NCBI RefSeq assembly: GCF_057098645.1
Contig: NZ_CM169472.1
Direction: 5' to 3' (one strand)
Length of the DNA stretch: 64,000 bases
Of this stretch, positions 3,329-60,666 are shown piece after piece. The notes beneath the pieces are model-generated. The model saw only the letters and a list, made by a program, of their open reading frames with translations. It ran no database searches and had not been told where the DNA came from. The position numbers and the translations under genes were made by a program. How positions within the stretch are numbered: the first letter of the stretch is position 1; the number at the start of each line of letters is the position of its first letter.

Positions 3329-4495
3329 ATGCGCCATTGTGGGTGGTTGCTGGGATTGTTATCGCTGTTTTCTCTGGCAACACATGCCAGTGACTGGCAA
3401 GAAATTAAAAATGAGGCCAAAGGGCAAACTGTCTGGTTTAACGCCTGGGGCGGCGATACCGCAATTAACCGCTATCTCGACTGGGTTAGCGGCGAGATGA
3501 AAACCCATTACGCTATAAACCTGAAGATTGTTCGTCTGGCGGATGCCGCAGACGCGGTGAAGCGCATTCAGACCGAAGCCGCAGCCGGACGTAAAACGGG
3601 CGGCTCGGTGGATCTGCTCTGGGTGAACGGCGAAAACTTCCGCACCTTAAAAGAGGCCAATTTATTACAAACGGGCTGGGCGGAGACTCTGCCCAACTGG
3701 CGCTATGTCGACACACAGCTGCCGGTGCGGGAAGATTTTTCAGTGCCGACACAAGGTGCGGAATCGCCCTGGGGCGGCGCACAACTGACGTTTATCGCCC
3801 GCCGCGATGTTACGCCACAGCCACCACAAACGCCGCAAGCCTTACTGGAGTTTGCTAAAGCCAATCCCGGCACGGTTACCTATCCGCGCCCACCGGACTT
3901 TACCGGCACGGCGTTTCTTGAACAGTTGCTGATTATGCTGGCGCCCGATCCCGCCGCATTAAAAGAAGCGTCGGACGATGCGACTTTCGCCCGTGTCACT
4001 GCTCCCTTGTGGCAATATCTTGATGCGCTGCATCCGTATTTGTGGCGCGAAGGAAAGGATTTCCCGCCTTCGCCCGCGCGGATGGATGCTCTGCTGAAAG
4101 CCGGCACATTGCGCCTGTCGCTGACCTTTAACCCCGCGCATGCGCAGCAAAAAATCGCCAGCGGCGATTTGCCTGCAAGCAGTTACAGTTTTGGCTTTCG
4201 CGAGGGGATGATTGGCAACGTGCATTTCGTCACCATTCCTGCCAACGCGAATGCCAGTGCTGCGGCGAAGGTAGTTGCCAATTTCTTGCTCTCACCCGAT
4301 GCGCAATTGCGTAAAGCAGATCCCGCTGTCTGGGGCGATCCTTCTGTTCTCGATCCGCAAAAACTGCCTGATGGGCAGCGCGAAACATTGCAATCAAGAA
4401 TGCCGCAAGATCTGCCGCCGGTACTGGCTGAACCGCACGCAGGTTGGGTAAATGCGCTGGAACAAGAATGGCTACACCGTTACGGTACGCATTAA
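3329..4495 (+). CDS. ynjB: ABC transporter periplasmic substrate-binding protein
   Basis: 388/389-aa ORF with N-terminal signal peptide (LLGLLSLFSLATHA); followed by permease and ATPase genes. Confidence 0.8.
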   Translation: MRHCGWLLGLLSLFSLATHASDWQEIKNEAKGQTVWFNAWGGDTAINRYLDWVSGEMKTHYAINLKIVRLADAADAVKRIQTEAAAGRKTGGSVDLLWVNGENFRTLKEANLLQTGWAETLPNWRYVDTQLPVREDFSVPTQGAESPWGGAQLTFIARRDVTPQPPQTPQALLEFAKANPGTVTYPRPPDFTGTAFLEQLLIMLAPDPAALKEASDDATFARVTAPLWQYLDALHPYLWREGKDFPPSPARMDALLKAGTLRLSLTFNPAHAQQKIASGDLPASSYSFGFREGMIGNVHFVTIPANANASAAAKVVANFLLSPDAQLRKADPAVWGDPSVLDPQKLPDGQRETLQSRMPQDLPPVLAEPHAGWVNALEQEWLHRYGTH

Positions 4496-6722: not shown

Positions 6723-8030
6723 ATGAAACGTGTTTCTCAAATGACCGCGCTGGCAATGGCTTTAGGGCTGGCTTGCGCTTCTTCGTGGGCCGCTGAACTG
6801 GCGAAGCCTCTTACACTTGACCAGCTTCAACAACAAAATGGCAAAGCGATAGATACTCGCCCCAGCGCGTTTTATAACGGCTGGCCACAAACCTTAAATG
6901 GCCCTTCTGGTCATGAACCTGCCGCCTTAAACCTCTCTGCTAGCTGGCTTGACAAAATGAGCACCGAACAGCTAAACGCGTGGATCAAGCAACATAACCT
7001 GAAAGCCGATGCCCCGGTGGCGCTATACGGTAATGGCAAAGATGTCGACGCAGTCAAAACGCGACTGCAAAAAGCAGGTTTTACGCATATCTCCATTCTG
7101 AGTGACGCGCTAATCGAACCTTCCCGTCTACAAAAACTGCCGCACTTTGAGCAGCTGGTTTATCCGCAATGGCTGCACGACCTGCAACAAGGTAAAGAGG
7201 TTACGGCGAAACCTGCCGGTGACTGGAAAGTCATTGAAGCGGCCTGGGGCGCTCCTAAGCTTTACCTTATCAGCCATATTCCCGGTGCTGACTACATCGA
7301 TACCAACGAAGTGGAAAGCGAACCGCTGTGGAACAAAGTTTCTGATGAACAACTAAAAGCGATGCTGGCAAAACACGGCATTCGCCATGACACCACGGTC
7401 ATTCTGTACGGGCGTGACGTATACGCTGCAGCGCGTGTGGCGCAGATTATGCTTTATGCCGGCGTGAATGATGTGCGCCTGCTGGATGGCGGCTGGCAAA
7501 CCTGGTCCGACGCGGGACTGCCTGTTGAGCGAGGAACGCCACCGAAAGTGAAAGCGGAACCGGATTTCGGCGTGAAGATCCCGGCACAACCGCAACTAAT
7601 GCTTGATATGGAACAGGCGCGTGGACTGCTGCATCGCCAGGATGCATCGCTGGTGAGCATTCGTTCGTGGCCAGAGTTTATCGGTACGACCAGCGGTTAC
7701 AGCTATATTAAACCAAAAGGTGAAATAGCCGGAGCACGTTGGGGACACGCTGGTAGCGACTCGACGCATATGGAAGATTTCCATAACCCGGATGGCACCA
7801 TGCGTAGCGCCGATGATATTACCGCTATGTGGAAAGCATGGAATATCAAACCAGATCAGCAAGTTTCATTCTACTGCGGCACCGGCTGGCGCGCGTCCGA
7901 AACCTTTATGTACGCACGAGCAATGGGCTGGAATAACGTCTCCGTTTACGACGGCGGCTGGTACGAATGGAGCAGCGATCCAAAAAATCCGGTAGCAACC
8001 GGTGAACGCGGCCCGGACAGCAGCAAATAA
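6723..8030 (+). CDS. ynjE: Periplasmic rhodanese-domain sulfurtransferase (thiosulfate sulfurtransferase family)
   Basis: 435 aa from internal ATG (MKRVSQMTALAMALGLACASSWA signal peptide); tandem rhodanese-like architecture with CGTGWR active-site loop. Confidence 0.85.
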   Translation: MKRVSQMTALAMALGLACASSWAAELAKPLTLDQLQQQNGKAIDTRPSAFYNGWPQTLNGPSGHEPAALNLSASWLDKMSTEQLNAWIKQHNLKADAPVALYGNGKDVDAVKTRLQKAGFTHISILSDALIEPSRLQKLPHFEQLVYPQWLHDLQQGKEVTAKPAGDWKVIEAAWGAPKLYLISHIPGADYIDTNEVESEPLWNKVSDEQLKAMLAKHGIRHDTTVILYGRDVYAAARVAQIMLYAGVNDVRLLDGGWQTWSDAGLPVERGTPPKVKAEPDFGVKIPAQPQLMLDMEQARGLLHRQDASLVSIRSWPEFIGTTSGYSYIKPKGEIAGARWGHAGSDSTHMEDFHNPDGTMRSADDITAMWKAWNIKPDQQVSFYCGTGWRASETFMYARAMGWNNVSVYDGGWYEWSSDPKNPVATGERGPDSSK

Positions 8031-8038
8031 CATTGCAA

Positions 8039-8659
8039 TTACTGACGCTGGAGCGACTTCAGCGTCAGATACCCACTCCACACCCGCGTAAAGGTCGTCA
8101 TCCAGCACAACGCACCAAATACCCACGCAAACCACGGAAAACAGGTCGGAAAGAGGCAACTCAGAACAAACAGCAAAATCGTCTCGCTGCCTTCGGTTAA
8201 CCCGCCCAGATAATAAAACGATTTATGCGCATAACCGGGATTATCAATCTGATGTTTCGCCGCCAGCGCAGCAAAGGCGAGAAAACTGCTGCCCGTACCA
8301 ATAAACGCAAACAGCAGCCAGCCGCCTGCCAGCGCATTTTGCTCCGGTGCAGCAAGAATAAACCCAAAAGGCACCAGCGCGTAAAAAAGAAAATCGAGAG
8401 AAATATCGAGAAAGCCGCCCGCGTCGGTAAGCCCTCTGCGCCGCGCCAGCGCACCGTCCAGACCATCAAGCAGCCTGTTCAACAAAATGACGACTAGCGC
8501 CGCCAGATACCAGCCCAGCGCCAGAAACGGCAGAGCCAGCACGCCGATGGCAAATCCCACTAATGTTAAACCATCTGGCGTAATGCCCGGTTTATCAAGA
8601 ACCCGCACGCACTGATGCAACAACGGTTTAATCCGGGGATGAAGATGGCGGTCTAGCAC
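8039..8659 (-). CDS. ynjF: CDP-alcohol phosphatidyltransferase family membrane protein
   Basis: Minus-strand ORF; GTG at 8657-8659 lies 5 nt downstream of an AGGAG Shine-Dalgarno; 206 aa; motif DGLDGALAR. Confidence 0.8.
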   Translation of the reverse strand: MLDRHLHPRIKPLLHQCVRVLDKPGITPDGLTLVGFAIGVLALPFLALGWYLAALVVILLNRLLDGLDGALARRRGLTDAGGFLDISLDFLFYALVPFGFILAAPEQNALAGGWLLFAFIGTGSSFLAFAALAAKHQIDNPGYAHKSFYYLGGLTEGSETILLFVLSCLFPTCFPWFAWVFGALCWMTTFTRVWSGYLTLKSLQRQ

Positions 8660-8745: not shown

Positions 8746-9153
8746 ATGAAAATGATTGAAGTTGTTGCCGCCATCATTGAACGTGATGGCAAAATTTTAC
8801 TCGCGCAACGCCCCGCCCAGAGCGATCAGGCGGGATTATGGGAGTTTGCCGGTGGTAAAGTCGAGCCGGATGAAAGTCAGCGGCAGGCGCTGGTGCGTGA
8901 GTTACGCGAAGAACTGGGCATCGAAGCAACTGTGGGTGAGTATGTTACCAGCCATCAGCGAGAAGTTTCGGGGCGAATTATCCATCTTCATGCCTGGCAC
9001 GTACCCGACTTCCACGGGACGTTACAGGCTCATGAACATCAGGCGCTGGTCTGGTGCTCACCTGAAGAGGCGCTGCAATATCCGCTGGCCCCTGCTGACA
9101 TTCCACTATTAGAGGCATTTATAGCTTTACGCGCCGCCAGACCAGCGGATTAG
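8746..9153 (+). CDS. nudG: Nudix hydrolase, (d)CTP pyrophosphohydrolase
   Basis: 135-aa ORF with Nudix box (GGKVEPDESQRQALVRELREELGIE). Confidence 0.85.
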   Translation: MKMIEVVAAIIERDGKILLAQRPAQSDQAGLWEFAGGKVEPDESQRQALVRELREELGIEATVGEYVTSHQREVSGRIIHLHAWHVPDFHGTLQAHEHQALVWCSPEEALQYPLAPADIPLLEAFIALRAARPAD

Positions 9154-9391
9154 TGCTAAGGGTTTTGTCATCACGCTGGCATTGCAGCAGTATTCCTTCG
9201 GCTTTAATTACCGCTCCTTCAGAATAATTTTTATCCTGATAAACGCAGCACTGAGTACAGGGCTGCGCTGACTGCCCGCCTGAACTGAACACTTCTGGCG
9301 GTACGTTAACCTCCACGTCCGGACGATAATGCGGGTTAGCCAGTGCAATTAATGGAAATGCTAATACTACGGCGAACAATGCTCGACTCAC
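9119..9391 (-). CDS. ynjH: Small secreted protein, DUF1496 family
   Basis: 90-aa ORF with N-terminal signal peptide; convergent with nudG and overlapping its 3' end by 35 nt. Confidence 0.75.
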   Translation of the reverse strand: MSRALFAVVLAFPLIALANPHYRPDVEVNVPPEVFSSGGQSAQPCTQCCVYQDKNYSEGAVIKAEGILLQCQRDDKTLSTNPLVWRRVKL

Positions 9392-33144: not shown

Positions 33145-33346
33145 TGCAAAATGGCATCTGAATCGATCGCAGTTTGGCATTCGAATCGATCATGATTTGG
33201 CATCCATCTCCGATCACAGTTTGGCATCACAATCGATCACGATTTGGCATGCTTCCGATCATTGATTGGCATCCTGCCAGTCACTCCGGGAATTAACTCT
33301 TTTCACCACAGTCTCCATTGCCGTGTTTAAACCAGTGGAGACGTCA

Positions 33347-34912
33347 ATGTCCAGAAAGAGAAAATCCAGGAGCACTATGGAAACCTGTTTTAAGATCCTT
33401 CAGCTCAAGTTCGACAAGAAGCTGACTAACCGTTGTATCGGACTGACGTTACACATCAGCGCCTCAACCGTTTTTGAGGTTCTTGCCCGCTTCAAAGCCT
33501 CTTCTCTGTCATGGCCATTACCTGCTGATATATCCCATGACACGCTGGAGAAACTCATTTTTCCGCCCAAAGACACCTTTGCATCAGAGCTTGTAATGCC
33601 TGACATGTTGTACTTCGATACGGAAATGAGAAAACCAGGTGTGACGCGGCAACTGTTGTGGATGGAATACAAGGCACAGGCGGGTAACAAAGCGATGGGA
33701 TACTCGCACTTCTGCCGTTGCTACCGGGAGTGGAAAAAAACGCGACGTCTCTCCATGCGCCAGGAGCATCGTGCCGGCGAAAAGCTTTTTATCGACTTCT
33801 GTGGTCCTACGGTTCCTGTTATTAATCCGGACACCGGTGAGATACGCCGCGTGGCAATCTTCGTGGCCGTAATGGGGGCGTCCAACTATACCTACGTTGA
33901 AGCGTGCGAAGGTCAGGACATGATGTCATGGTTAAATGCCCACAGCCGTTGCCTGACCTTCCTGGGCGGCGTACCGAAGCTGCTCATCCCCGATAACCTC
34001 AGAAGCGCAGTGAAAAAGGCCGATCGATATGAGCCTGTCATCAACGACAGTTATCAGGCACTGGCTGAGCACTATGGCACGGTTATCATCCCGGCCCGAC
34101 CACGCAAACCTAAAGATAAACCAAAAGCAGAAAACGGCGTCCTCATCGTTGAACGATGGCTTCTTGCCCGCATCCGTAATGAAACCTTCCACACGCTCAG
34201 GGCGCTGAATGCGCGCCTTAGGGAGTTACTGACAGACATGAATAACCGGCCAATGAAGGGGTACGGCAATCAAACCCGTGCAGAACGCTTCCGCATACTG
34301 GATGCGCCAGCACTCTCTCCGCTGCCTCTGGCACCTTATGAATACACGGAATACAAAGCTGTGAAGGTTGGCCCTGACTACCACGTTGAATATGCCCGTC
34401 ACTGGTACTCCGTTCCACACGAACTGGTCGGTCAGCGTCTGTCACTGAAGGCGGGGCAGTCGGTGGTACAGCTCTGGCACAAGGGGCAGTGTGTGGCGCA
34501 ACATCCGCGCAGCACACATGAATATAAACACACAACCAATCCGCTTCACATGCCAGAGCGCCACCGGCAGCACGGGACATGGACACCGGAACGCCTGATC
34601 GAGCAGGGAAAACGTACGGGCCCGTCCACAGGCCGGGTGGTTGAATCCATGCTGAAGGCAAAACCCCATCCGGAACTGGCTTATCGTGCAGTTCTGGGGC
34701 TGCTGGCACTTCAGAAAAAATACGGCCCGGAACGGCTGGAAAAGGCCTGTTACGTTGCCCTGCACTATAACGCCCCTGACAGACGCTTTATCGACAATCT
34801 GCTGCGTCACCATCGGGAGAACCTGGAGCTTCCATTATCCCGCCAGGGCGAACAACATCCGGCATATGCTTCAGAGCATGAAAACCTGCGTGGTCCGGGC
34901 TACTACCACTGA
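33347..34912 (+). CDS. istA: IS21-family transposase IstA
   Basis: 521 aa from ATG 33347 preceded by GGAGA; N-terminal HTH region and DDE integrase core; organisation typical of IS21 family. Confidence 0.8.
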   Translation: MSRKRKSRSTMETCFKILQLKFDKKLTNRCIGLTLHISASTVFEVLARFKASSLSWPLPADISHDTLEKLIFPPKDTFASELVMPDMLYFDTEMRKPGVTRQLLWMEYKAQAGNKAMGYSHFCRCYREWKKTRRLSMRQEHRAGEKLFIDFCGPTVPVINPDTGEIRRVAIFVAVMGASNYTYVEACEGQDMMSWLNAHSRCLTFLGGVPKLLIPDNLRSAVKKADRYEPVINDSYQALAEHYGTVIIPARPRKPKDKPKAENGVLIVERWLLARIRNETFHTLRALNARLRELLTDMNNRPMKGYGNQTRAERFRILDAPALSPLPLAPYEYTEYKAVKVGPDYHVEYARHWYSVPHELVGQRLSLKAGQSVVQLWHKGQCVAQHPRSTHEYKHTTNPLHMPERHRQHGTWTPERLIEQGKRTGPSTGRVVESMLKAKPHPELAYRAVLGLLALQKKYGPERLEKACYVALHYNAPDRRFIDNLLRHHRENLELPLSRQGEQHPAYASEHENLRGPGYYH

Positions 34913-34928
34913 CAGAAGGAACAACAGT

Positions 34929-35684
34929 ATGAGTGATAACCTGTTAAACAAACTGACCCAACTGAAACTCCCGGCGATGGCCGGGAGCCTGATACGGCAG
35001 CGGGAAACGCCTCAGACCTACGACGAACTGTCGTTCGAGGAAAGGCTGACGCTGCTGGTTGATGACGAGCTTCTGAGCAGGGAAAACAGCCGTGTGGCAC
35101 GGTTGAGAAAAAATGCCGGCCTGAAATACCAGGCAACACCGGAAGGGCTGCGCTATCCGGCCTCAAGAGGTCTGCGGGCTGAACAGATGAGAGAACTGCT
35201 GAACGGCCACTACATAACCCACAGGAAAAACCTGCTGATAACCGGTCCGACAGGATGTGGCAAGAGCTGGATAGCCAATGCGCTGGGCGAACAGGCATGT
35301 CGACAGAAACACAGCGTCCGGTACTGTAGAACCGGGCGATTACTGGAACAACTGGCTCAGGGACGTGTTGATGGCAGCTGGCTGAAATATCTGAAACAGT
35401 TGCAAAAAATACAGGTTCTAATCCTGGACGATCTGGGGCTGGAACAGTTAAGTAACGCCCAGTGTAATGACCTTCTGGAGCTCATAGAGGATCGTTACGG
35501 ACAAAGCAGCACGATAGTGGTAAGCCAGTTCCCGGTAGATAAATGGCATGGTCTGATGGAGAACCCAACAACAGCAGATGCCATCCTGGACAGACTGGTA
35601 CATAACTCACACCGAGTGGTCCTTCAGGGAGAGTCACTGAGGAAAAATCCCCCGGTAGTGGAAAGCAGCGAAAAAACGCGTTAA
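34929..35684 (+). CDS. istB: IS21-family helper ATPase IstB
   Basis: 251 aa; Walker A GPTGCGKS and Walker B ILDDLG; 16 nt after istA with GAAGGA RBS. Confidence 0.85.
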   Translation: MSDNLLNKLTQLKLPAMAGSLIRQRETPQTYDELSFEERLTLLVDDELLSRENSRVARLRKNAGLKYQATPEGLRYPASRGLRAEQMRELLNGHYITHRKNLLITGPTGCGKSWIANALGEQACRQKHSVRYCRTGRLLEQLAQGRVDGSWLKYLKQLQKIQVLILDDLGLEQLSNAQCNDLLELIEDRYGQSSTIVVSQFPVDKWHGLMENPTTADAILDRLVHNSHRVVLQGESLRKNPPVVESSEKTR

Positions 35685-35783
35685 AAAGCGGTAGAAAAAG
35701 TTAAGTTCCCGGTTGATCGAATGGATGCGAATCGCTGATCGGACTTCGATGCCAATCCGTGATCGAATAGAGCGGAATACGCA

Positions 35784-44268: not shown

Positions 44269-44772
44269 ATGACTGAAATGGCTAAAGGAAGCGTGACGCA
44301 TCAGCGGTTAATCGCTTTATTATCACAAGAAGGTGCAGACTTCCGCGTCGTTACCCATGAAGCGGTAGGTAAATGTGAAGCGGTGTCAGAAATTCGTGGC
44401 ACCGCTTTAGGCCAGGGGGCTAAGGCACTGGTATGTAAAGTCAAAGGCAATGGCGTAAATCAACATGTTCTGGCGATCCTCGCTGCGGATCAACAGGCCG
44501 ATCTGAGCCAACTCGCCAGCCATATAGGCGGATTACGCGCTTCGTTGGCCAGCCCGGCGGAAGTCGATGAACTCACAGGCTGTGTCTTCGGCGCGATCCC
44601 CCCTTTCAGCTTCCATCCAAAACTCAAACTGGTTGCCGACCCCCTACTCTTCGAACGATTTGATGAAATCGCCTTCAATGCAGGCATGCTGGATAAATCC
44701 GTTATTTTGAAAACCGCGGATTATTTGCGCATTGCGCAACCAGAACTGATCAATTTCCGCCGCACTGCGTAA
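44269..44772 (+). CDS. yeaK: YbaK/ProX-type aminoacyl-tRNA deacylase family protein
   Basis: 167-aa ORF, family-level similarity. Confidence 0.8.
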   Translation: MTEMAKGSVTHQRLIALLSQEGADFRVVTHEAVGKCEAVSEIRGTALGQGAKALVCKVKGNGVNQHVLAILAADQQADLSQLASHIGGLRASLASPAEVDELTGCVFGAIPPFSFHPKLKLVADPLLFERFDEIAFNAGMLDKSVILKTADYLRIAQPELINFRRTA

Positions 44773-44877
44773 CTAGCCTGTCCGTTCAATAAGCAGAACG
44801 GACAAAACCAGCACAACAGCAATGGCAAAAAACGATGACGTGATAATCAGTGTCTCGACGAACATTTGATCGTTCAT
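44773..44877 (-). CDS. yoaI: Tiny inner-membrane protein (34 aa)
   Basis: Minus-strand ATG at 44875-44877 to stop 44773-44775 translates [34 protein letters not shown], a single TM helix; below the 60-aa cutoff of the ORF track. Confidence 0.5.
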
Positions 44878-45046: not shown

Positions 45047-45493
45047 ATGTTTGATGTCACTTTGCTGATCCTGCTCGGGTTAGCTGCGCTGGGCTTTATC
45101 AGTCATAACACCACTGTCGCCGTTTCAATTCTGGTGTTGATCATTGTCCGCGTCACACCGTTAAGCACCTTTTTCCCGTGGATTGAAAAACAGGGGCTAA
45201 GTATCGGGATAATCATTCTGACGATTGGCGTTATGGCCCCCATCGCCAGCGGGACGCTACCGCCCTCAACCTTGATTCACTCGTTTCTGAACTGGAAATC
45301 GCTGGTGGCAATTGCAGTAGGCGTTATTGTCTCCTGGCTGGGTGGGCGCGGCGTGACGTTAATGGGCAGCCAGCCGCAACTGGTTGCTGGGCTGCTGGTG
45401 GGCACTGTTTTAGGCGTAGCGCTGTTTCGCGGCGTACCGGTTGGCCCGCTTATTGCCGCGGGTCTGGTTTCGCTGATTGTGGGGAAACAGTAG
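45047..45493 (+). CDS. yeaL: UPF0756 family inner membrane protein
   Basis: 148-aa hydrophobic ORF. Confidence 0.8.
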
Positions 45494-46271
45494 TTAATCC
45501 CGCAATATATCGGCCTGGCGTTTGCCCCAGGCCTTTCTTAAACATAGTAATAAAGGCCGTTGTTGAATCATACCCCAGCGTATGAGCAACTTTCTGTACA
45601 GTATCGCCTTTCACTAATCCCTGAAGCGCCATAATCAGCTGTAACTGCTGACGCCACTGGCGAAAACTCAACCCCGTCTCTTTTACTATCAGTCGGGCAA
45701 GATTGCGTTCACTCATCGCAAAAAAGCCAGCCCATTGCCCCAATGACCCCCACTCGACGGGCTCTTTCGCCATCATCTCCACCATCGTGCGGATTTTAGG
45801 ATGAGAAGAAACGGGCAAGTGCAGCTGTTGTTGTGGCTGCTGAGGGAGTTCATCAAACAGGACCTGAATTAATCTGCGGGTCATCGGCTCAGCACGCTGA
45901 GTCGTAGTCCTGTTTGCCAGGGTTAAAATCAATTCCCGGCATAAGGGCGATATTTTCAATGTGCAACATGTTGTCGGCATTGTCACTGCGCTGGGTTCGA
46001 TAAACAGAAAACAGAGTTCAGCGTTAGCTGTCACTTGATTGCTATGCTTCACCCCGCCCGGTATCCAAACCGCATATTGTGGCGGCACCATCCACAAAGC
46101 ATTTTCCACCGTACAGGTAATTGCACCATGTAATGCCAGTATCAGCTGTCCTTTGCGGTGCTGATGTACAGGACTGGTTAACTCATCCGTTCCGGCGTGA
46201 ATACAAAATGCGACCGCGGCTTCATGGTGTCGGTCGGGTTCATAGCCATTGAGATTCAACCTGTGCATCAT
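45450..46271 (-). CDS. nimR: AraC-family transcriptional regulator
   Basis: 273-aa ORF (yeaM) with C-terminal AraC HTH; divergent from MFS gene yeaN; 3' end overlaps yeaL by 44 nt. Confidence 0.8.
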
Positions 46272-47603: not shown

Positions 47604-47951
47604 ATGAATATTCAGTGCAAACGCGTTTATGATCCGGCAGAACAGAGCGATGGTTATCGCATACTGGTCGACCGCCTCTGGCCGCGCGGTATCAAAAAAA
47701 CCGATTTAGCCCTTGATGAGTGGGATAAAGAAATCACGCCGTCAACGGAACTGCGCAAAGCCTTTCACGGCGAAGTCGTCGATTTTGCAACCTTTCGCGA
47801 GCAATATCTTGCAGAACTGGCGCAACACGAGCAAGAAGGAAAGCGGCTGGCGGACATCGCCAAAAAACAGCCGCTGACCCTGCTCTACTCAGCAAAAAAC
47901 ACCACGCAGAACCATGCGCTGGTGCTGGCCGACTGGCTACGTAGCTTGTGA
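47604..47951 (+). CDS. yeaO: DUF488 family protein
   Basis: 115 aa from internal ATG (MNIQCKRVYDPAEQSDGYRI...). Confidence 0.75.
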   Translation: MNIQCKRVYDPAEQSDGYRILVDRLWPRGIKKTDLALDEWDKEITPSTELRKAFHGEVVDFATFREQYLAELAQHEQEGKRLADIAKKQPLTLLYSAKNTTQNHALVLADWLRSL

Positions 47952-47972
47952 TTTTAGTACAGCATCCGGCGG

Positions 47973-48227
47973 TTATTTTTCACCAGCCGGATGGTCCCGT
48001 CGCCACAATGCCCATTCATCAATCGTTTCACCGCCCGGTAATTTGCAATTGTTGCTGACCCCTTGCGCTGTCTGCACTGGAATGAGCGTCCCGCCCTTCT
48101 GCTGGCAATAGACCGACGCCGGATTTGCCATACCAATCTGCGGCGGTTTAGGTGCATCTGGCTGAGAAGGGGTTGAACAACCAGCCAGGACCAGCAAGCA
48201 AGGCAGAACAAAACTGATAATTTTCAT
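47973..48227 (-). CDS. yoaF: Putative lipoprotein (DUF333)
   Basis: 84-aa ORF with lipobox LAGC. Confidence 0.75.
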   Translation of the reverse strand: MKIISFVLPCLLVLAGCSTPSQPDAPKPPQIGMANPASVYCQQKGGTLIPVQTAQGVSNNCKLPGGETIDEWALWRRDHPAGEK

Positions 48228-58911: not shown

Positions 58912-58980
58912 ATTGTATTCTCTTTAGTGGGCGTCAAAAAAAAAGCCGGATTAACCGGCGTCTGACGACTGACTTAACGC

Positions 58981-60666
58981 TCAGGCTTTATTGTCCACTT
59001 TGCCGCGCGCTTCGTCACGTAATTCTCGTCGCAAAATTTTTCCGACGTTAGATTTCGGTAACTCATCACGAAACTCCACCAGCTTCGGTACTTTGTAGCC
59101 CGTGAGCTGACGGCGGCAAAAGGTCACCAGTGACTCTTCGGTAAGCGATGGATCTTTTTTCACTACGAAGATTTTCACCGCTTCACCACTGGAGCCGGAA
59201 GGTACGCCAACAGCCGCGACTTCCTGTACGCCAGGATGCTGCATGACGACATCTTCAATCTCGTTGGGATAGACGTTAAAACCGGAAACCAGAATCATGT
59301 CTTTTTTACGATCGACAATGCGCAGGAACCCTTCTTCATCCATCACCGCGATGTCGCCGGTGTGTAACCAGCCATTTTTGATGATCTCATCTGTAGCATC
59401 CGGACGCTGCCAGTAACCCAGCATCACCTGCGGTCCTTTGACACAAAGCTCACCCGGTTGACCCGGTGGTACTTCATTATCATCATCATCCACCAGTTTG
59501 GCTTCCGTCGACGGCACCGGCAAACCGATGCTACCACTATGATAATCAATATCATATGGGTTAACGCTGACCAGCGGCGCACACTCGGTAAGGCCATAGC
59601 CTTCCAGCAGATACTGTCCTGTCAGTTTCACCCAACGCTCTGCCACCACTTGCTGCACTGGCATCCCACCGCCTGCGGAAAGATGCAGACTGGAGAAATC
59701 CAGCTGCTGGAACTCTTTATTGTTCAGCAACGCATTGAACAAGGTGTTAACGCCAGTGATAGCGGTAAACGGATATTTCGCTAACTCTTTTACCAACCCT
59801 GGAATATCACGCGGGTTAGTGATAAGCAGGTTCTGCCCACCCAGTTCGATAAACAGCAGGCAGTTAATGGTCAGGGCAAAAATGTGATACAGCGGCAGTG
59901 CCGTTACTACCAGTTCTTTACCTGGATGCAGCAACGGCCCATAGGTAGCGTTGACCTGTTCCAGGTTCGCCAGCATATTGCGGTGAGTCAGCATCGCGCC
60001 TTTCGCCACACCTGTGGTGCCGCCGGTGTATTGCAGGAAGGCTAAATCTTCCGGCACCAGTTCGGGTTTGACGTACTGCATCCGGTAGCCGTTATGCAGT
60101 GCGCTACGAAATGAAATGGCATCTGGCAGATGGTATTTCGGCACCAAACGCTTGATGTATTTAACAACGAAATTGACTACCGTGCCTTTTGCCGTAGATA
60201 GCTGATCGCCCATACGGGTCAGAATTACGTGCTGAACGGCGGTTTTATCAACTACCTTTTCCAGAGTGTGGGCAAAGTTAGACACGATAACAATCGCCGA
60301 TGCGCCACTATCGTTAAGCTGATGCTCAAGCTCGCGCGGGGTATACAACGGGTTGACGTTTACGACAATCATCCCGGCGCGCAAAATGCCAAACAGCGCC
60401 ACTGGATATTGCAATAAGTTAGGCATCATCAGCGCAACGCGATCGCCTTTCTTCAGCCCCAACCCTTGTTGCAAATAAGCGGCAAACGCGCGACTGCGCT
60501 CTTCCAGCTTGCGGAAGGTCATCACCTCCCCCATATTCACAAACGCAGGCTGATCGGCGTAGCGCGCGACCGACTGCTCAAACATATCTACCAGAGATTG
60601 ATAACGGTCAGGGTTGATCTCCGTCGGAACGTCCGCGGGATAACGGTTAAGCCAAACCTTCTTCAA
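58981..60666 (-). CDS. fadD: Long-chain-fatty-acid--CoA ligase
   Basis: ORF 58981-60732; likely TTG start giving 561 aa ([13 protein letters not shown]...); AMP-binding motif [12 protein letters not shown]. Confidence 0.9.

Follow-up and report, generated by a model that had tools for sequence, protein, structure and literature searches.

For convergent genes, Ju and co-workers reportedly described, in 2019, intrinsic terminators that act in both directions and termination driven by collision, and Peters and co-workers are said to have found, in 2012, that Rho and NusG suppress antisense transcription in Escherichia coli. Collision-driven bidirectional termination depends on a stem-loop located between the boundaries of the two genes (Wang et al., preprint 10.1101/2022.10.23.513370). 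E. coli K-12 also contains 58 convergent pairs whose coding sequences overlap; these overlaps have been attributed to stop-codon mutation, and the terminators of such genes must sit in the coding sequence of the partner (Lillo and Krakauer 2007, PMC2174442). Among convergent overlaps of at least 5 nt, 123:132 is the commonest phase and accounts for 49% of cases (PMC2174442). More recently, the excludome obtained with ExcludonFinder (NAR 2025, PMC12288877) listed 165 convergent excludons for strain MG1655, the criterion being that transcripts overlap in 50% or more of 58 MG1655 transcriptomes. The nudG-ynjH and yeaL-nimR pairs examined here are among them, and the same catalogue names ynjE-ynjF, yeaK-yoaI, yeaO-yoaF and pdeD-yoaE. 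Both overlaps are thus already known, from standard annotation as well as from the 2025 E. coli catalogue.

We examined both pairs in a 64,000-nt stretch of E. coli DNA (the window), which is 99.9% identical to E. coli O145 strain RM9872. The genes and their overlaps are as follows.

8746-9153, + strand: nudG coding sequence, CTP pyrophosphohydrolase, 135 aa (ORF list, PGAP; Pfam NUDIX at residues 4-125)
9119-9391, - strand: ynjH coding sequence, DUF1496/YnjH family protein, 90 aa (ORF list, PGAP; Pfam DUF1496 at residues 33-89)
45047-45493, + strand: yeaL coding sequence, DUF441 membrane protein, 148 aa (ORF list, PGAP; Pfam DUF441 at residues 7-145)
45450-46271, - strand: nimR (yeaM) coding sequence, AraC-family regulator, 273 aa (ORF list, PGAP; Pfam HTH_18 at residues 180-255)
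9119-9153, both strands: nudG/ynjH coding overlap, 35 nt, with nudG codon positions 1-2-3 opposite ynjH positions 1-3-2
45450-45493, both strands: yeaL/nimR coding overlap, 44 nt, of the same phase class as nudG/ynjH

A sequence-only reading of the window had reported overlaps of exactly these lengths, and they are borne out by the ORF coordinates and by the same boundaries in RefSeq/PGAP. It had also argued that no room is left for terminators between the genes, which is correct, since the ORF listing and the alignment place each stop codon within the reading frame of the partner in both pairs. Its further statement that transcripts must run antisense into the partner follows necessarily from the coding overlap, and overlapping transcription is indeed present in published RNA-seq (PMC12288877). 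It had suggested, too, that expression of the partners could thereby be negatively coupled, a reading taken up below as the functional excludon.

All four genes are genuine protein-coding genes. Their boundaries are identical in the RefSeq/PGAP annotation of the closest genomes and of divergent E. coli strains, and the nudG/ynjH and yeaL/nimR loci are present in 5423 and 5411, respectively, of 5426 complete E. coli genomes. NudG, YnjH, YeaL and NimR each contain a Pfam domain and have orthologues across genera, the structure of full-length NudG has been solved (PDB 2RRK), and strand-specific Ribo-seq is available for nudG and ynjH, a pair that GWIPS-viz uses to illustrate overlapping genes (PMC5753223). 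An annotation artefact, in which one gene of each pair is unreal or ends earlier, was considered because small ORFs such as ynjH (90 aa) can be spurious, but nothing was found in its favor. The 3' ends are set by stop codons and not by the choice of start site, and the domains, orthologues, structure and ribosome profiling effectively refute this explanation, to which we give almost no credence.

The lengths of the two overlaps are well within what chance would produce. As a null model for run-on, we considered the 61 genes of the region in the three antisense frames and determined, for an ORF entering the 3' end of a gene without spacer, the distance to the first antisense stop. This distance has a median of 61 nt, and it reaches at least 35 nt with a probability of 0.65 and at least 44 nt with a probability of 0.60; with such a median, overlaps of 35 and 44 nt require no selection. 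Both overlaps have the 123:132 phase, and neither is statistically unusual. Across the window there are 11 convergent junctions in the closest genome, with spacers of 8, -35, 116, 92, 50, 0, -44, 21, 58, 53 and 119 nt; two of the 11 overlap, and five have a spacer of 21 nt or less.

Some of the other junctions are similarly tight. The convergent genes yeaK (+) and yoaI (-) (44269-44877), the latter coding for a small membrane protein, meet at 44772/44773 with zero intergenic bases and form a third terminator-less junction. A published 3' end on the + strand (U00096.3 position 1874225; Adams 2021) is annotated as antisense to yoaI and is presumably the end of the yeaK transcript. The convergent pairs ynjE/ynjF (8030-8039) and yeaO/yoaF (about 47951-47973) have spacers of 8 and 21 nt, respectively. 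A co-directional overlap of 28 nt, between the same-strand ABC transporter genes ynjB and ynjC (4468-4495), is annotated in the closest genome. Elsewhere in the window, yeaE is interrupted by a 2.64-kb insertion relative to RM9872 (33145-35783), which is an IS21-family element: it contains two ORFs with integrase-core/Mu-transposase-C and IstB_IS21 domains, and several subterminal repeats of ~23 nt (CGATC..TTTGGCAT) are found at both of its ends.

The comparison of nudG and ynjH among relatives reveals which of the two genes dictates the overlap. A NudG scan with one genome per species gave 80 loci, and ynjH is convergent with, and directly adjoins, nudG in 78 of them. Among the sampled Enterobacteriaceae (Escherichia, Citrobacter, Salmonella, Kosakonia, Kluyvera, Buttiauxella, Phytobacter, Atlantibacter, Mangrovibacter and Pseudocitrobacter), the genes overlap at every locus where ynjH was detected, by 41 nt (n=28), 35 nt (n=17), 38 nt and 44 nt (n=3 each), 26 nt (n=3) or 23 nt (n=1). 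Over all 78 loci, the overlaps apart from the 41- and 35-nt classes span 23-50 nt, with further overlaps of 8-12 nt (n=5) and gaps of 3-30 nt (n=16), and in Serratia, Yersinia and Erwinia the genes mostly have such a short overlap or gap. In 50 Enterobacteriaceae loci the ynjH stop is fixed at nudG start + 373 while the nudG stop shifts, and among orthologues nudG stops at codon 133, 136, 137, 138 or 139. Such shifts can be silent in the partner: the TAG stop of nudG in E. coli corresponds to TGG (Trp) in other Escherichia, which is a synonymous ACT/ACC (Thr) change in ynjH.

The domain limits and residue conservation show the same asymmetry. The Pfam domain of NudG ends at F125 (9118-9120), where the ynjH stop (9119-9121) is also found, and the residues beyond it form a tail on the passenger side.

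9121-9150, + strand: run-on tail at the C-terminus of NudG (residues 126-135, IALRAARPAD), past the Pfam NUDIX envelope; passenger side
9123, both strands: single-base variant, A here and G in the closest genome and other aligned E. coli, giving NudG M126I and YnjH P90L

Each column of this tail holds 2-6 different residues among the 50 loci, except for the invariant A131. On the opposite strand, the last 12 residues of YnjH (STNPLVWRRVKx) are almost invariant across the same 50 loci, and the Pfam DUF1496 domain extends to the penultimate residue. For the variant at 9123, no exact match to the 61-mer around it was found in the 5426 complete E. coli genomes; 3690 of them gave a hit, each with at least one mismatch. 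The same state at 9123 is also natural in Salmonella diarizonae (L018).

Per-site entropy by codon position was computed for the 50 Enterobacteriaceae loci with the fixed ynjH stop. Upstream of the ynjH stop the highest entropy is at nudG position 3 (1.58 bits). Inside the overlap the maximum (0.77 bits) falls on the third position of ynjH codons, corresponding to the second position in nudG, and the minimum (0.18 bits) on the third position of nudG codons, corresponding to the second position in ynjH. The switch from nudG to ynjH periodicity occurs exactly at the ynjH stop; substitutions within the overlap obey the codon periodicity of ynjH and not that of nudG. The entropy at ynjH position 3 is lower in the overlap than in the ynjH-only part (0.77 versus 1.22). 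Constraint from both genes may be the cause, as opposed to codon make-up, and this counts against a purely neutral overlap.

These data also bear on the possibility that the tails (NudG 126-135 and NimR 256-273) are functional dual-coding sequences, which maintain the overlap through a role in stability, localisation or regulation. In the AlphaFold2 model of NudG (mean pLDDT 92.8), the terminal helix (118-130) reaches residue 130, five residues into the overlap, followed by coil at residues 131-135 (mean pLDDT 59). The tail is semi-conserved and ALRAARPAD-like in Enterobacteriaceae, with A131 unchanged throughout, and the long NimR tail is common to E. coli and Citrobacter freundii. But the invariant and semi-conserved NudG positions are exactly those fixed by the ynjH W-R-R-V codons opposite. 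The conserved ...LLxAFI of NudG is usually followed by just 4-10 further residues in Serratia, Yersinia and Erwinia, and what comes after AFI in Yersinia and Serratia is unrelated sequence. Similarly, the last 9 NimR residues are missing in most genera, and the resemblance of the E. coli tail to that of Citrobacter is imposed by yeaL, whose sequence on the other strand is conserved. A functional role of the tails is therefore highly improbable.

At the second locus, yeaL is the gene that dictates the overlap. YeaL (148 aa) has a conserved C-terminus in almost all sampled Enterobacteriaceae, regardless of the neighbouring gene, and the variable end belongs to NimR.

45453-45506, - strand: NimR C-terminal run-on tail, residues 256-273, beyond the HTH domain; passenger side

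The HTH domain of NimR ends at Y255 (45507-45509), 13 nt beyond the yeaL stop, which ends at 45493. NimR has 273 aa in E. coli and 272 aa, also a long form, in Citrobacter freundii, versus 262-264 aa in most other genera (Salmonella, Klebsiella, Kluyvera, Enterobacter, Raoultella, Lelliottia and Pluralibacter) and in one non-coli Escherichia lineage. Salmonella, Klebsiella, Kluyvera, Enterobacter and non-coli Escherichia have a tail that is shorter by 9-10 residues and differs in sequence. The E. coli extension arose by a change of the ancestral TAA to CAA, followed by nine extra codons to the next antisense TAA. This change corresponds to ATT to GTG in yeaL, that is, Ile to Val; a loss of the nimR stop that is synonymous in yeaL was thereby ruled out by codon inspection.

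The 3' end of yeaL has also met other partners. In Kosakonia and Pseudescherichia, an ABC-transporter permease gene replaces nimR as the convergent neighbour and overlaps the yeaL 3' end by 21 nt (L091, 2927-2947) and 18 nt (L095, 2930-2947), which indicates that the end of yeaL is recurrently overlapped by unrelated genes. In Atlantibacter, which lacks nimRT, 87 nt of spacer follow yeaL and contain a strong hairpin terminator (dG -18.5, z -2.6).

The sequence-only reading would be refuted by earlier stop codons in orthologues that remove the overlaps, and on this point the result is mixed. For nudG/ynjH, an earlier nudG stop in Serratia, Yersinia and Erwinia mostly removes the overlap or cuts it to 8-12 nt, but 23-44 nt are kept in the Enterobacteriaceae in which ynjH was found. 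For nimR, the stop is indeed earlier in the other genera examined, but the overlap merely shrinks, to 21 nt in Salmonella and 17 nt in the others.

Taken together, both sites are probably ordinary tail-to-tail overlaps that arose by neutral or near-neutral 3' run-on, with the complementarity of the transcripts as a by-product. The functional ends of each pair abut with essentially no spacer, and the conserved, domain-coding end of one gene (ynjH or yeaL, the driver) would dictate the DNA. Translation of the other gene (nudG or nimR, the passenger) would then continue opposite the driver up to the first antisense stop, giving a short and weakly constrained tail, and the passenger stop moves by point mutations that leave the driver protein unchanged or alter it conservatively. 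Asymmetric constraint is evident from the codon-position entropy, the residue counts, the domain limits and the two lengths of NimR, and relatives with an earlier stop or a spacer exist for both pairs (gaps in Yersinia and Serratia, the spacer of Atlantibacter, and the shorter nimR overlaps). Gene boundaries, conservation asymmetry, stop drift and an overlap length under the neutral expectation are all directly observed. Because the length drifts, the frame of one partner constrains the overlap and the length falls below the neutral median, the comparative data do not need a coupling function.

As each stop lies within the ORF of the partner, a terminator cannot sit between the two genes, and full-length mRNAs must share at least 35 nt (nudG/ynjH) or at least 44 nt (yeaL/nimR) of complementarity with the mRNA of the partner. 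For the same reason, each mRNA would end inside the partner gene. Even in Serratia, Yersinia and Erwinia the spacer is merely 3-30 nt, so that a terminator still has no room. A scan for the terminator consensus gave no site near the 3' ends of nudG, ynjH or nimR, and the folding of the first ~110 nt past these three stops and of the nudG/ynjH junction was not better than that of shuffled sequences (z 0.06 to 1.13). The junction folds (9105-9170) have z of +0.4 and +1.1 on the two strands, and the nimR 3' extension (z = +0.57) has no hairpin. An Rfam scan found no family at either overlap; its sole match in the window is the sRNA sroD (58937-59022, - strand; 108.5 bits). The structure and composition of the regions past the stops gave the following candidates.

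45512-45543, + strand: candidate terminator-like hairpin (45512-45533) with a UUUCUU tract, 7-bp GC stem and 8-nt loop, 19 nt past the yeaL stop and within nimR codons 244-254
8807-8962, - strand: part of the ynjH 3' extension, antisense to nudG, C-rich and G-poor (C/G up to 1.94); candidate Rho loading region
45294-45449, - strand: C-rich part of the nimR 3' extension, antisense to yeaL (C/G 1.43-1.94); candidate Rho loading region
45572-45805, + strand: C-rich part of the yeaL 3' extension, antisense to nimR (C/G 1.6-2.17)

The hairpin past yeaL has a dG of -14.1 kcal/mol (z -2.2 to -2.9), but as an intrinsic terminator of yeaL it is a candidate only. The scan found one site at yeaL/nimR versus 2.2 expected from shuffles, and Salmonella, Klebsiella, Enterobacter and Kluyvera lack the structure even though the nimR codons are conserved, the perfect stem being present only in E. 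coli. Its palindrome comes from the Gly-Leu and Pro-Gly codons of nimR, and the U tract from Lys-Lys codons.

Rho acts on untranslated antisense RNA, and C-rich, G-poor RNA is its typical substrate. Based on the C/G ratio in 78-nt windows, for which the 95th percentile over the whole window is 1.73, three of the four 3' extensions hold stretches of C over G at or above this percentile; the nudG extension has none. This composition suggests Rho-dependent termination inside the partner gene. Each mRNA would probably end in this way, on its untranslated C-rich antisense extension, and the yeaL transcript might have an alternative end at the weak E. coli-specific hairpin. Because the supplements of Adams 2021 and of SMRT-Cappable-seq list no 3' ends for nudG, ynjH, yeaL or nimR, we infer the mode of termination from composition. 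The complementarity of 35-44 nt between sense and antisense RNA is most likely tolerated, with little regulatory effect. We take all four genes to be lowly expressed.

The main alternative is that the layout is a functional excludon, in which the spacer-less convergent arrangement is selected since read-through antisense transcription makes expression of the partners mutually exclusive, through collision of RNA polymerases, through RNase III cutting the 35-44 bp duplex and longer 3' extensions, or through both. Both pairs belong to the MG1655 excludome (PMC12288877, Table 1), in which excludon pairs show, as a class, less frequent co-expression in single cells and more synteny, and the partners are not shielded by strong terminators. 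Its strongest point is the retention of nudG/ynjH across Enterobacterales, in 78 of 81 loci, where 77 of the 78 have an overlap or a gap of 30 nt or less, while ynjF and gdhA vary. But the support for mutual exclusion in that study comes from class-level single-cell co-expression ratios and is specific to neither pair, p19 capture of double-stranded RNA was uninformative for convergent pairs and thus did not validate them, and the definition used takes in any pair with overlapping coding sequences, whatever its function (PMC12288877). The overlap length and the tail sequence drift freely, and in some genera the overlap persists although the partner of yeaL differs. We know of nothing that links a nucleotide pyrophosphohydrolase functionally to a secreted protein of the DUF1496 family, or the nitroimidazole regulator to yeaL, which also counts against a selected coupling. 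We consider a functional excludon unlikely.

The genes on either side of nudG and ynjH have changed repeatedly among the relatives. The distance between ynjF and nudG is about 640 nt in many genera (L010-L053, which include Citrobacter, Kluyvera, Buttiauxella and others) versus 87 nt in Escherichia, implying an extra gene there, and gdhA is not beside ynjH in Buttiauxella or at any Serratia, Yersinia or Erwinia locus. The flanks are thus much less stable than the nudG/ynjH pair itself. That convergent adjacency is kept while both flanks change is a point against a neutral origin. Nevertheless, without a breakable spacer between the genes, neutral run-on accounts for the retention equally well.

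A more far-reaching version for nudG/ynjH is that it forms an ancient, selectively maintained spacer-less convergent module, in which antisense read-through reciprocally controls the Nudix enzyme and the secreted DUF1496 protein, possibly extending to non-contiguous ynjH-ynjF and nudG-gdhA transcripts in Escherichia. The scan gave no terminator-like site between ynjH and ynjF or between nudG and gdhA. Neither the nudG/ynjH nor the yeaL/nimR locus is among the three non-contiguous operons reported for E. coli (PMC12288877). We regard such a module as rather improbable. If the pair were a functional excludon after all, nudG/ynjH would be a small, deeply conserved model for the coupling of convergent transcription.

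Under neutral 3' run-on, which we prefer, the overlaps themselves have significance little beyond bookkeeping, and the terminator question for convergent overlaps was discussed already in 2007. What they add is an example of how an overlap can be formal rather than functional, with a conserved end on one side and a drifting run-on tail on the other, and this calls for caution before regulation is read into every listed excludon.

Compared with excludons, as described in Listeria (Sesto et al. 2013) and mapped in E. coli and S. aureus (PMC12288877), the two loci are alike in having overlapping transcripts of opposite-strand neighbours. The classical cases, however, have long antisense overlaps and demonstrated reciprocal expression, whereas the present pairs are documented for transcript overlap only. 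With bidirectional intrinsic terminators and collision-driven termination they share the convergent arrangement, in which polymerases must meet and collision could aid 3'-end formation. They differ in that both pairs lack intergenic DNA and a shared hairpin flanked by A and U tracts; the lone hairpin, at 45512-45533 within nimR, is unidirectional and lacks conservation. The suppression of antisense transcription by Rho and NusG provides another likeness, as the antisense RNA past each stop is untranslated and, in three of the four cases, C-rich and G-poor. It differs from the present loci in that the searchable data report no 3' ends sensitive to bicyclomycin for any of the four genes. The closest match is to the convergent overlaps produced by stop-codon mutation and 3' elongation (Fukuda et al. 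2003; PMC2174442). As in those, two real opposite-strand genes have their 3' ends in common, in the 123:132 phase, one partner carries a poorly conserved extension, point mutations toggle its stop, and the overlap is tens of nt long. There is no essential difference between them and the pairs described here; what is additional in nudG/ynjH and yeaL/nimR is that the driver was identified, from the codon-position pattern and the limits of the domains.
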